Below, piece after piece: positions 3,076 through 37,300 of a stretch of 64,000 nucleotides of DNA. A model generated the notes under the pieces. It was not told the origin of the DNA, did not search any database, and was given only the letters and a program-made list of their open reading frames with translations. A program made the translations under genes and the position numbers. The stretch is from an uncultured Chloroflexia bacterium (GTDB taxonomy: Bacteria; Chloroflexota; Limnocylindria; Limnocylindrales; CSP1-4). The stretch's first letter is position 1. Each line of letters begins with the position of its first letter. The DNA is taken from contig CAVVCZ010000005.1 in assembly GCA_963746845.1 (NCBI GenBank), positions 384,001 through 448,000 of the forward strand, written 5' to 3'.

Positions 3076-3152
3076 CCGCCCGTAGCTCAGTGGATCAGAG
3101 CGACTGACTTCGGATCAGTAGGTCGGGGGTTCGAATCCCTCCGGGCGGGCCA
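3076..3152 (+). tRNA. tRNA-Arg, anticodon UCG
   Basis: Cloverleaf: CCGCCCG/CGGGCGG acceptor, GCTC/GAGC D stem, ACTGA-CT(TCG)GA-TCAGT anticodon arm, GGGGG-TTCGAAT-CCCTC T arm, G73, encoded CCA; A20 Arg identity base; TATCAT -10 at 3061. Confidence 0.95.
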
Positions 3153-35053: not shown

Positions 35054-35129
35054 TGGTAGGGGAGCCAGGACTCGAACCTGGAACCAGCGGGATATAAGCC
35101 CGCCGCTCTGACCATTGAGCTACTCCCCC
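35054..35129 (-). tRNA. tRNA with anticodon UAU (putative tRNA-Ile for AUA)
   Basis: Minus strand GGGGGAG TA GCTC AATGGTCA GAGC G GCGGG CT(TAT)AT CCCGC TGGTT CCAGG TTCGAGT CCTGG CTCCCCT A CCA; all stems pair; TAGCAT -10 upstream. Confidence 0.93.
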
Positions 35130-35215
35130 GCGCCGATGCTACCGCGCGGTCACGCGCCTGTCAGTCCGGAACGAGGGATTGGGCTGTCGAGGTGCCGCAG
35201 CGCCGAGGTGTCGGG

Positions 35216-35476
35216 TCAGTTCTCGCCGTGGCCGAGGATGCGCCCGGCGAGGGCCTTGAGGCTGAGCGGTCGCGGGTTGAGCGTCGGCTCGGGGCCCAGA
35301 TCGTGGGACGGCCTGACCTCGATGAGCTCGCGTTCCTCGTCCGTGCGGACCGCTTCGATCGGCAGATCGTCCGGATCGAACGGCCGCGGCGTCTCGGCCG
35401 CGGGGCGTGCGGGACGGCCGTACGCGGGGGCGCCATAGAGCTTGGGCAGTGCGACGTGCTGCTCGTCGATCGCCAC
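35216..35476 (-). CDS. Small hypothetical protein (86 aa)
   Basis: GTG start with GAGGA RBS, coding-like GC3, LPKLYGAPAY...PFDPDDLPI. Confidence 0.7.
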   Translation of the reverse strand: MAIDEQHVALPKLYGAPAYGRPARPAAETPRPFDPDDLPIEAVRTDEERELIEVRPSHDLGPEPTLNPRPLSLKALAGRILGHGEN

Positions 35477-35639: not shown

Positions 35640-36044
35640 TCAGCCGATCAGCGGCTCCAGCACCTGGACGACCACCACCAGGACGAGGTAGCAGACGGGG
35701 ACGGCCGCGAAGAATCCGAGCGCCGCGCTCCACCCGGACCGGGTCGTCCGATCTCCGGATCCGCGTGGCTGCGGCACGACCCACCAGGTCACGACGCTGC
35801 CCACGACGAGCACGATCGCCACATCGAGGACGAGGTACAGGGTCCGGAGGTCACCGCCGGGCAGGGCCGCGCCCCGTCGGATCGCGGTGTCGTACACGAG
35901 GTAGCCGAGGCCCAGGACGATCGCGACGACGAGGCTCGAGAGCACCGCCCGGACGACCGGTCGGGGCGCGTTCCGGAACTGCCGCCAGCGGACCTCGAGC
36001 CACGAGCGGTGCCGGACCTCCGGGCCGTGCGCGGGCGCCGTCAT
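35640..36044 (-). CDS. Hypothetical 3-TM membrane protein
   Basis: ATGA-coupled to the upstream aminotransferase; three hydrophobic segments. Confidence 0.8.
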   Translation of the reverse strand: MTAPAHGPEVRHRSWLEVRWRQFRNAPRPVVRAVLSSLVVAIVLGLGYLVYDTAIRRGAALPGGDLRTLYLVLDVAIVLVVGSVVTWWVVPQPRGSGDRTTRSGWSAALGFFAAVPVCYLVLVVVVQVLEPLIG

Positions 36045-37282
36045 CCCTGGCCCTGGCCGATGATCTGCAGCTTGGGTCGTTGCGGAAGCGTCTCCGGCGT
36101 GTGGGCCGCGAGGAGCTCGACGGCCGTGGCGACCCGTTCGATCTCGTCCTCGGTCGTGAAGAACCCGACGCTGATCCGGAGGGCGTCGAGCGGCGGGATC
36201 GTCCGGGCGATCGCGAAGGTCCGCCCGGCGATCTCTGCGAGGGCCGTCGCCGCGTCCCAGCCGCCGATCCGGAACGTGACGAGCGTGCCCATCCGGTCGC
36301 GCGGCGTCAGCATCTCGACGCCGTCGATCCGGGCCAGGCGGTCGACCGCGAGCTGCGCCATGGCCTGGCCACGGGCGTGGATCCACGGCAGTCCGACGTA
36401 CATCGAGAGCCAGCCGCAGCTCCGGGCGAGCCCCGTGATCCCCGGCCGGTACGGCCCCCCGTCCTCGAAGCGGCGGGCGTCCGACCACGGGACCGCCTCG
36501 TCGGGGCTGATCCGCTCGTACGTGAAGAAGCTGCCGTTCAGGACGAACGAGCGGTCCACGACCGCCGGCGACGCCCACAGCGCGCCGGTCCCCTCCGGCC
36601 CGAGCAGCCACTTCTGACCGGGGATCGCGTAGAAGTCGACCCCGAGCTCGGCGACGCTGACCGGCATCGCCCCGGTCGACTGGGCGCCGTCGACCGCGAT
36701 GACGGCGCCCCGTCCGTGGGCGAGGGACGCGATCTCGGTCAGGGGAAGGCGGGCGCCGGTGGTCCACAGGACATGCGACACGGCGACGAGCCGCGTGCCC
36801 GGCCGGATCGCGGCGTCGAACGCCTCGAGGATCCGGTCGTCGTCCCCGCCCAGCCCGACGTCGACCGCGACGATCTCGGCGCCGGTCCGCGCCGCGATCG
36901 CATGCGACGGCCCGAGGGCGCCCGGGTGCTCCGCGCGCGTCGTGACGATTCGATCGCCGGGCCGCAGATCCACGGACCACATCGCCGCGTTCATCGCGGC
37001 GGTCGTGGAGTGGGTGATCGCGATCTCGTCGACCTCCGCGCCGACGACCGCGGCCACGGCGCCACGCGCCTCGGCCAGGCGCTCGAGGAACGCCTCCCAG
37101 TAGTCGATCGAGGCGCGGCCGATCCGGAGCTCGTAGTCGACGATCTCGGCCATTGCGGCGGCGGTCTCGGCCGGCATCGGGCCGACGGAGCCGGTGTTCA
37201 GGTAGATCCCGGCCCCGAGCGCCGGCAGCGCAGCGCGGATCGCCGCCAGCTTCTCGGCATCGGGCAGGAAGGGGGCGACCAC
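36041..37282 (-). CDS. Class-V PLP aminotransferase (cysteine/cystine C-S lyase / EgtE / CefD-like)
   Basis: YLNTGSVGP, EHPG, SHVLWTTG, DGAQS, PGQKWLLGPEG (PLP Lys), LRIS; leaderless GTG. Confidence 0.9.
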   Translation of the reverse strand: MVAPFLPDAEKLAAIRAALPALGAGIYLNTGSVGPMPAETAAAMAEIVDYELRIGRASIDYWEAFLERLAEARGAVAAVVGAEVDEIAITHSTTAAMNAAMWSVDLRPGDRIVTTRAEHPGALGPSHAIAARTGAEIVAVDVGLGGDDDRILEAFDAAIRPGTRLVAVSHVLWTTGARLPLTEIASLAHGRGAVIAVDGAQSTGAMPVSVAELGVDFYAIPGQKWLLGPEGTGALWASPAVVDRSFVLNGSFFTYERISPDEAVPWSDARRFEDGGPYRPGITGLARSCGWLSMYVGLPWIHARGQAMAQLAVDRLARIDGVEMLTPRDRMGTLVTFRIGGWDAATALAEIAGRTFAIARTIPPLDALRISVGFFTTEDEIERVATAVELLAAHTPETLPQRPKLQIIGQGQG

Positions 37283-37300
37283 GTCCGTATGATATCGGCG
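37283..37300. promoter_or_regulatory. Overlapping divergent -10 elements for two leaderless genes
   Basis: Plus TATGAT 37288-37293 +7 nt to ATG 37301; minus TATCAT 37294-37289 +6 nt to GTG 37282. Confidence 0.75.

Follow-up and report, generated by a model that had tools for sequence, protein, structure and literature searches.

In canonical bacteria, the isoleucine codon AUA is read by a tRNA-Ile2(CAU) carrying the lysidine made by TilS, an enzyme whose determinants in E. coli are the pairs C4:G69 and C5:G68. TilS is generally regarded as an essential enzyme that almost every bacterium has, and it has been found in 98.18% of genomes and called "evolutionarily stable" (PMC6063277). Natural exceptions are known from a few genera associated with hosts (Mycoplasma, Bifidobacterium and Neorickettsia), with biochemistry for a single parasite only, and Ile3(UAU) has been counted instead of Ile2 in 17 of 4036 bacterial genomes (PMC8450103). 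Here we describe a tRNA-Ile gene with an encoded UAU anticodon, located in a 64,000-nucleotide stretch of DNA (the window) that corresponds to contig C5, positions 384001-448000, of the Chloroflexota genome G000 (3,564,506 bases in 12 contigs, 70-72% GC). We consider it likely that its product is a functional minor tRNA-Ile that reads AUA directly through the encoded UAU, and that it has replaced TilS and tRNA-Ile2(CAU) across the order formed by the family of this genome (f1) and a second family (f2).

Several described systems help to place this locus. Mycoplasma mobile is likewise without tilS and Ile2(CAU) and has one tRNA-Ile gene with TAT; this parasite, whose genome has 777 kb, owes its specificity for UAU to Arg865 in the zinc-binding domain of a type 1 (bacterial) IleRS, and the danger of misreading AUG was said to be answered by "some property of the ribosome" (PMC3575796). 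Bifidobacterium and Neorickettsia are tilS-less and have an IleRS of the eukaryotic type, the same combination as in G000 (PMC3575796). In a suppressor of tilS loss in Bacillus subtilis (Fabret et al. 2011), a laboratory mutant of tRNA-Ile1(GAU), another tRNA gene was recruited by one change at position 34 (PMC3575796, PMC3919564), and the LAU-to-UAU shift is therefore reachable in one step. Finally, the eukaryotic cytoplasmic tRNA-Ile(UAU) has an encoded UAU with pseudouridine at positions 34 and 36, and an intron that directs the pseudouridylation (PMC11685878).

The gene itself is well defined. ARAGORN calls a tRNA-Ile with tat at position 34, one of two tRNAs in the window (Table 1), and the Rfam model RF00005 is matched over its full length at 35057-35129 with 73.3 bits against a gathering score of 29 (E 3.9e-14), a signal far above chance. 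There is no intron. The anticodon loop is C-U-U-A-U-A-U, which places a U at position 38, and the U12:A23, G4:C69, G5:C68 and G29:C41 pairs described in a previous sequence-only reading were all read in the sequence, as were the anticodon at 35096-35094, A73 and the encoded CCA. The same reading had spoken of a perfect cloverleaf; the overall fold stands, according to ARAGORN, Rfam and covariation, and the perfection does not, given the G1-U72 wobble. Among 27 distinct orthologues, 25 have G-U and two have G-C as pair 1:72; positions 32 to 37 (C32-A37) are invariant in all of them while the stems vary, and U, C or G, but in no case A, occupies position 38. Standard pairs fill 99.1% of the 567 pair cells of the cloverleaf, compared with just 42-57.5% when the 3′ partners are slid by one to three columns as a control, and changes on both sides, of the compensatory kind, are found at 10 of the 21 stem pairs (82 cells). 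The UAU tRNA is thus real, conserved and under selection for the cloverleaf, and with its discriminator A73 and encoded TAT the gene is of the isoleucine type.

An error of sequencing or assembly, by which a real CAT or GAT anticodon had been read as TAT, is extremely improbable. TAT was found in 60 of the 60 loci run through ARAGORN, which come from independent assemblies (all 30 loci detected by BLAST and all 30 loci from 13 further f1 genera were called tRNA-Ile(tat)), and contigs of four public runs gave no other letter at 35094-35096. Additionally, the suggestion that the gene is not a standard Ile2 miscalled at one base agrees with its identities, which are 58-72% to Ile2(CAU) versus 64-80% to elongator tRNA-Met.

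The argument for replacement rests on a pattern across genomes, because G000 is rated 92.4% complete and most relatives are draft bins, so that each single absence is weak. TilS and the Ile2(CAU)-type tRNA are not found where the UAU tRNA is found, and in the sister families the reverse is observed. In G000, the best match to the TilS model TIGR02432 (cut-off 93.6 bits) reaches 20.2 bits and is GMP synthase, and PF01171 has no match; both models were positive in 14 of 14 control genomes. The tRNA set of G000 includes, according to ARAGORN, one GAU, one UAU and two CAU tRNAs, the latter being the initiator and the elongator tRNA-Met, and each of four TilS-bearing relatives has three CAU tRNAs. 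The three CAU classes of these relatives are an initiator with a C1/A72 mismatch, a class with the acceptor GGC- and a class with the acceptor GGGCCCA-, which has C4:G69 and C5:G68. Over its full length, the last class is 78-79% identical to an E. coli tRNA-Ile annotated in RefSeq with a CAT anticodon, and it is therefore of the Ile2(CAU) type; G000 retains the initiator and GGC- classes and is without the GGGCCCA- class. For the elongator-type CAU tRNA the E. coli matches were uninformative (the best was a prophage or plasmid tRNA-Phe), and it is taken to be tRNA-Met by elimination and because it is present in all families. Both searches that the sequence-only reading had proposed, for tilS and for Ile2(CAU), thus came out negative in G000.

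The swap extends well beyond one genome. A BLAST search with the tRNA in 40 relatives detected a copy with 96-100% identity in 22 of 24 genomes of the same genus, and copies with 81-87% identity in 10 of 16 genomes of f2, whose members have genomes of 1.0-1.4 Mb. When 151 genomes of the class, each at least 80% complete and from families f1 to f5, were drawn evenly, TilS was over the cut-off in 90, all belonging to f3, f4 or f5, and in none of the f1 genomes (45 including G000) or f2 genomes (6). Conversely, a pattern for the UAU anticodon loop and T arm was matched in 44 of 44 f1 genomes, besides G000 itself, and in five of six f2 genomes, and in 0 of 49, 0 of 50 and 0 of 1 genomes of f3, f4 and f5; the reversed pattern, used as a control, had no match. 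This split by family maps the swap to the stem of the order that contains f1 and f2, an order-level clade of high-GC soil and freshwater bacteria in the Chloroflexota. For Ca. Limnocylindria, with the members CSP1-4, P2-11E and QHBO01, 2.39 Mbp and 68.9% GC have been reported (PMC10608941), values that agree with the class sampled here, which is probably this one.

A tilS hidden from the search was considered and rejected, with 0 of 51 f1 and f2 genomes over the cut-off versus 90 of 100 in the sister families. Among the pattern matches listed, a third tRNA-like CAU match within f1 occurs only in G127 (C72:4229-4257), whose genus mates have two; the CAU-count pattern, applied to f1 and f2 only, is noisy and produces chance matches that are not tRNAs. 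Some of the genomes in these tallies are unpublished, namely G010 (same-genus BLAST, ARAGORN loci and one alignment row), G102, G135, G167, G157, G131 and G122 in the class draw, and G475, G218, G345, G328 and G412 in the phylum draw described below. Without them the same-genus count becomes 21 of 23, the UAU pattern is matched in 0 of 46 f3 and 0 of 47 f4 genomes and in 3 of 3 genomes of family f56, and the conclusions are the same.

As a separate observation on tilS, in the TilS-bearing sister families an elongator-type tRNA-Met gene precedes tilS, in the same orientation and at a distance of about 70-220 nt (L081/L089, G049:C2:493546-493620; L082/L090, G043:C1:768170-768244; L080/L100, G125:C1:1528071-1528145; L093/L097, G044:C20:124285-124546), and in G044 an initiator tRNA is also found upstream of it. 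The tRNA beside tilS is not of the type that TilS uses as a substrate, and the Ile2(CAU) gene is elsewhere.

A tRNA with an encoded UAU must also be charged. The IleRS of G000 (contig C4, 1134 aa) matches PF00133, PF08264 and PF19302 (94.5 bits), with no match to the zinc-finger IleRS domain (zf-FPG_IleRS). It scores 503 and 470 bits against the MupA and MupB models, and 597 bits against type-2 versus 220 bits against type-1 chains solved in PDB, and the nearest protein-atlas cluster is commonest in Chloroflexota. By these matches the enzyme is assigned to type 2 (eukaryote/archaeal-like), with a C-terminal DUF5915 domain instead of the zinc-binding domain. In yeast IleRS, Arg999, which Gln996 and Leu1004 adjoin, makes a hydrogen bond with the base-34 carbonyl of G, I, U and pseudouridine, which is absent in C (PMC11685878). 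The G000 enzyme has Gln1058, Arg1061 and Leu1066 with the same spacing (Gln-x-x-Arg-x-x-x-x-Leu), in a stretch that aligns to human and type-2 bacterial structures, and the arginine that would read position 34 is conserved in 21 of 21 C-termini from f1 to f5. The single type-2 IleRS would thus charge the UAU tRNA with isoleucine, and since the arginine contacts a carbonyl that C lacks at this position, U34 should be accepted and tRNA-Met rejected. MetRS, in turn, should ignore the UAU tRNA because C34 is gone.

The type-2 domain is found in 150 of 151 genomes of the class draw and in 391 of 401 genomes of the phylum draw. Being phylum-wide, this type of IleRS pre-dates the loss of TilS, and together with an extreme GC pressure on AUA it would form a permissive background, the two not being sufficient causes. 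At the C-terminus, counting from the arginine that would read position 34, residues -6 and -12 are Arg and Asp in all 11 IleRS compared from TilS-less genomes, and in the 10 from TilS-bearing genomes residue -6 is His in nine and residue -12 is Leu or Met in all ten; given a single loss event, these differences are indistinguishable from shared ancestry.

The second difficulty is the avoidance of AUG. Misreading would probably be kept low by competition from tRNA-Met, AUG being about 115 times commoner than AUA, and the weakness of a U34 that is probably unmodified may reinforce this effect. Likewise, the unusual pyrimidine or G at position 38, where A is never observed, may contribute. U34 is probably unmodified because MnmG was not found in G000, MnmE has only GTPase-domain matches (none over the cut-off), and the known substrates of MnmA, which is present (C4:562741-563826, 314 bits), have U35. 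The pathway to xm5U34 thus seems to be missing, and the searches in G000 found no enzyme that would add the xm5 group to U34. Alternatively, U34 could be modified by an unrecognised enzyme (to pseudouridine, a 2-thio or another derivative), which would give reading of AUA only, recognition by IleRS, or both. We regard such a modification as rather unlikely, and it would leave direct decoding of AUA in place, altering the mechanism only. The presence of MnmA speaks for it, as does a cysteine-desulfurase-like gene, which precedes the tRNA on its strand in 44 of 60 loci. Nevertheless, these 44 loci are all from f1 and the gene is beside the tRNA in 0 of 7 f2 loci; it is also far below every curated cut-off (its best NCBIfam match, to the SufS family, has 144 bits, far below the cut-off of 475), so that a functional tie between it and the tRNA is speculation. 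The missing MnmG and MnmE and the U35 of the MnmA substrates likewise count against a modified U34. Besides, M. mobile works without a wobble modification (PMC3575796).

In G000, AUA has almost disappeared. In 2145 genes picked from open reading frames (ORFs) by their GC content at third codon positions (GC3), ATA was counted 108 times in 829,718 codons (0.13 per 1000), which makes it the second rarest sense codon after TTA (29), compared with 38,386 ATC and 12,351 ATG. At least one ATA is present in 97 of the 2145 genes, none of them in the window. In small samples, the sister families share this GC richness and scarcity of ATA, and ATA is commoner in f2 (8 in 4,941 codons). For 28 of the 97 genes a match was found in 790 kb of the same-genus genome G016, and the 17 ATA sites that could be aligned correspond there to nine ATA, three ATC, two GTA, one CTA, one CTG, one TGC and no ATG, that is, to 12 Ile, two Val, two Leu, one Cys and no Met, which agrees, if indirectly and on few sites, with AUA being read as isoleucine. 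A reassignment of AUA to methionine was considered as well, and it was rejected with Met at 0 of the 17 aligned sites.

Such scarcity might mean that the tRNA is mainly a regulatory or relic decoder, with AUA in practice unassigned or rationed and the tRNA gating the few genes that contain it, in the way that the bldA tRNA of Streptomyces gates genes with UUA. Both the low count and the nine of 17 aligned ATA kept in a relative whose proteins are 58-89% identical, which hints at retention, favour this idea. However, f2 uses ATA more often with the same tRNA (the sample is small), and some of the retained "ATA" are part of a conserved leader repeat and are not codons; we therefore hold a mainly regulatory role to be improbable, and prefer a minor tRNA-Ile in ordinary use. 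The repeats in question are three elements containing GATATA, 15 nt apart, in the leader of a gene that lies outside the window (G000:C5:489448-490647), close to residues 97-107 of the over-long ORF. They are kept in G016, they make up three of the 108 "ATA codons" of G000, and they resemble an operator or a promoter element more than part of a reading frame.

The surroundings of the gene are those of an ordinary chromosomal locus (Table 1). The flanking genes are ordinary as well, with a convergent ORF downstream, and the 2-kb bin that contains the tRNA has a GC content of 0.716, with no anomaly in a window that ranges from 0.68 to 0.75. A consensus scan upstream of the tRNA gave one promoter-like site where 0.1 were expected. 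A hexamer TA[CG][CGA]AT that ends 3-14 nt upstream was found in 35 of 51 distinct f1 upstream regions, compared with a background of 0.4% at random places of the same loci, and in 0 of 7 f2 upstream regions, so that a putative -10-like box is conserved in f1. As context only, the 86-aa ORF, which has no match in Pfam or NCBIfam, adjoins the tRNA in 38 of 60 loci of relatives according to tblastn.

Table 1. Position and strand of the features discussed, counted from the first nucleotide of the window.
Feature	Position	Strand	Basis or remark
tRNA-Ile(UAU) gene, 76 nt, CCA encoded, A73, G1-U72 wobble	35054..35129	-	ARAGORN, Rfam, covariation
Anticodon UAU (positions 34-36) within the invariant loop stretch C32 U33 U34 A35 U36 A37	35094..35096	-	sequence, orthologues, contigs
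Promoter-like site CTGACA, 17 nt spacer, TAGCAT	35136..35164	-	second hexamer ends 6 nt before tRNA base 1
86-aa ORF that belongs to no known family; it separates the tRNA from the desulfurase-like gene	35216..35476	-	GC3 0.87
Class-V aminotransferase/cysteine-desulfurase-like gene, upstream, same strand, start codon not fixed	36041..37300	-	PF00266, 183.7 bits

It could also be argued that the gene belongs, as an accessory tRNA, to a phage or another mobile element, and that TilS and Ile2(CAU) were missed by the assembly. In favour of this, UAU tRNAs are found on a plasmid record of Streptomyces and within large tRNA arrays of other phyla, and the assembly of G000 is incomplete. Against this, the flanking genes are syntenic across genera, the GC content is normal, the tRNA stands singly with neither an integrase nor a tRNA array near it in the window, and TilS is over the cut-off in none of the 51 f1 and f2 genomes (90 of 100 in the sister families) while UAU is present in 45 of 45 f1 genomes. 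Consequently, a mobile origin with a TilS out of sight is very improbable, and a chromosomal tRNA that serves the whole order is preferred.

The other tRNA of the window is a tRNA-Arg(UCG) at 3076-3152 (+). In the whole assembly ARAGORN finds arginine tRNAs with CCG, CCU, GCG, UCU and UCG and none with ACG, and a TadA-like deaminase is present (C4:1261385-1261807, 120 bits, below the cut-off of 150); the absence of Arg(ACG) despite this deaminase may reflect a gap in the assembly or a further peculiarity of decoding.

In public sequencing runs, the search gave partial coverage, with a best share of 0.27 and shares of 0.04-0.07 for runs of RNA libraries. Contigs over 35054-35130 came from one DNA run and from the RNA-library runs X6 and X16/X17 (the tables of X16 and X17 are identical, and the two are possibly one data set). 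The flanks of these contigs are unlike the window, and the contigs therefore come from relatives.

The phylum draw of 401 genomes (at least 85% complete) suggests that the swap has occurred repeatedly. TilS was over the cut-off in 358 of them and had no match at E 1e-10 in 42, which comprise 24 genomes of f1, four of f2, three of family f27, four of f56 and the singles G208, G533, G396, G469, G275, G381 and G471. A match to the UAU pattern was obtained in 35 of these 42 (all 24 of f1, all four of f2, four of four in f56, two of three in f27, and G533). The other 29 pattern matches, in TilS-bearing genomes, are mostly not tRNA-like, and there the reversed control matches at a similar rate; by eye, the match is tRNA-like in five TilS-bearing genomes. 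The UAU tRNAs of f56 and f27 have A38 and different acceptor stems, and the swap therefore seems to have arisen at least three times in the phylum, that is, in at least two lineages beyond the order of f1 and f2.

Nor are exceptions to lysidine as few as the sequence-only reading had stated. A scan of one genome per species with a single D-arm/UAU pattern gave at least 120 stretches from many uncultured lineages, and ARAGORN called a tat tRNA in 106 of the 120 listed. The record titles listed, for 80 of these 120, span groups of Patescibacteria, Planctomycetota, Acidobacteriota, Myxococcota, Streptomyces (one plasmid) and DPANN archaea. Among the matches listed, the two nearest tRNAs (L141, Chloroflexota, and L158, Chloroflexia) share the acceptor stem of the G000 tRNA, and tat tRNA genes are common in records of Patescibacteria/candidate phyla radiation (CPR) and DPANN (L142-L260). 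A side observation concerns tat tRNAs of 89-95 nt with a long extra arm or insert (L148, L157, L162, L203, L206 and L251), which ARAGORN finds in records of Acidobacteriota, Planctomycetota and Actinomyces. Four of them (L148, L162, L203 and L251) are within arrays of 11-33 other tRNA genes and the remaining ones are solitary; these long tRNAs are a different kind of UAU tRNA, possibly located on mobile elements.

Regarding its origin, the UAU tRNA resembles elongator tRNA-Met to a variable degree. In five f1 genera the identity is 76-80% to elongator tRNA-Met versus 58-68% to Ile2(CAU), but in G000 it is 71-74% versus 70-71%, and in f2 64-71% versus 64-72%. The acceptor stem differs from that of elongator tRNA-Met only at pair 3:70, and G1-U72 is common to both. 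In a FastTree tree of 83 tRNAs with masked anticodons, the UAU group is apart from Ile2(CAU), and Ile(GAU) and Val nest inside the UAU group. Recruitment from tRNA-Met is accordingly a lead suggested by these comparisons, not a finding. As for the order of events, it may be that GC pressure stripped AUA from the genes, that the permissive IleRS was already there, that the new tRNA then arose and that the old pair was lost. A more specific account is possible, and we offer it tentatively, as something we would not yet expect to hold in all its parts. In this account the UAU tRNA would have been recruited from a copy of elongator tRNA-Met (by C34 to U and a flip of pair 3:70) and not from a mutated Ile2(CAU), in a phylum whose type-2 IleRS judges position 34 by the carbonyl only; TilS and Ile2(CAU) would then have been discarded, an unmodified U34 would split AUA from AUG in a free-living, non-reduced bacterium, and at least three such swaps would have taken place in Chloroflexota, with possibly many more in uncultured phyla.

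Several points weigh against the replacement of TilS and Ile2(CAU) by a working UAU tRNA. The production of the RNA, its charging and its use are predicted from sequence, the avoidance of AUG is conjectural, and the RNA-library contigs that contain a copy of the tRNA may hold DNA, so that they are no proof of transcription. The correspondence of Arg1061 to yeast Arg999 was derived from the spacing of the motif and the end points of alignments, not residue by residue. Most of the 391 genomes of the phylum draw with a type-2 IleRS keep TilS, and the enzyme type therefore explains permissiveness and not loss. The incompleteness of G000 and the draft state of most of its relatives make single absences weak, and the distribution has gaps: BLAST detected no copy of the tRNA in G012 and G022, of the same genus, no UAU copy was detected in the f2 genome G029, and seven of the 42 TilS-less genomes of the phylum draw are without a match to the UAU pattern. 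With respect to codon meaning, the ORF set is crude, some of the ATA counted being upstream of true starts, in leaders, and the sample of aligned sites is small (17), with Cys at one of them.

Decoding with UAU and without TilS is known as a kind; as far as our searches reach, what is new here is the lineage, the scale, the free-living setting and the repeats within one phylum. The literature search, in the library that it covered, found no report of the loss of TilS in this lineage, and subscription journals and the supplementary taxon tables of PMC3575796 and PMC8450103 may list more cases. An order-wide and vertically inherited loss in free-living bacteria with genomes of 1-4 Mb provides dozens of natural replicates, for which the close TilS-bearing sister families serve as controls. 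For annotation, pipelines and completeness markers that expect tilS and three CAU tRNAs will misjudge such genomes.

In comparison with the canonical system, the codon and the amino acid are the same, and Ile2(CAU) with lysidine is retained in the sister families f3 to f5, but the tRNA of G000 has TAT and not CAT, G4:C69 and G5:C68 and not C:G pairs, and no TilS was found in the genome. With the eukaryotic cytoplasmic tRNA-Ile(UAU) it shares the encoded anticodon and, in the IleRS, the motif whose C-terminal arginine bonds the base-34 carbonyl (PMC11685878), while differing in its intronless gene and in having U, C or G, not A, at position 38. The B. subtilis suppressor arose in the laboratory; the change in this order is natural and old, and the tRNA body is nearer to elongator tRNA-Met than to Ile1 or Ile2. 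Compared with Bifidobacterium and Neorickettsia, the phylum is another one, the type-2 IleRS pre-dates the loss (391 of 401 genomes) and the usage of AUA is far lower. Finally, M. mobile and G000 share the same two problems, namely acceptance of UAU by the IleRS and protection of AUG from misreading (PMC3575796). In contrast to that parasite, however, G000 has 3.56 Mb and is free-living in style, the trait is order-wide, and the solution offered by the synthetase would be a different one, with an arginine of a type-2 IleRS devoid of the zinc-binding domain instead of the zinc-domain arginine of Mycoplasma.

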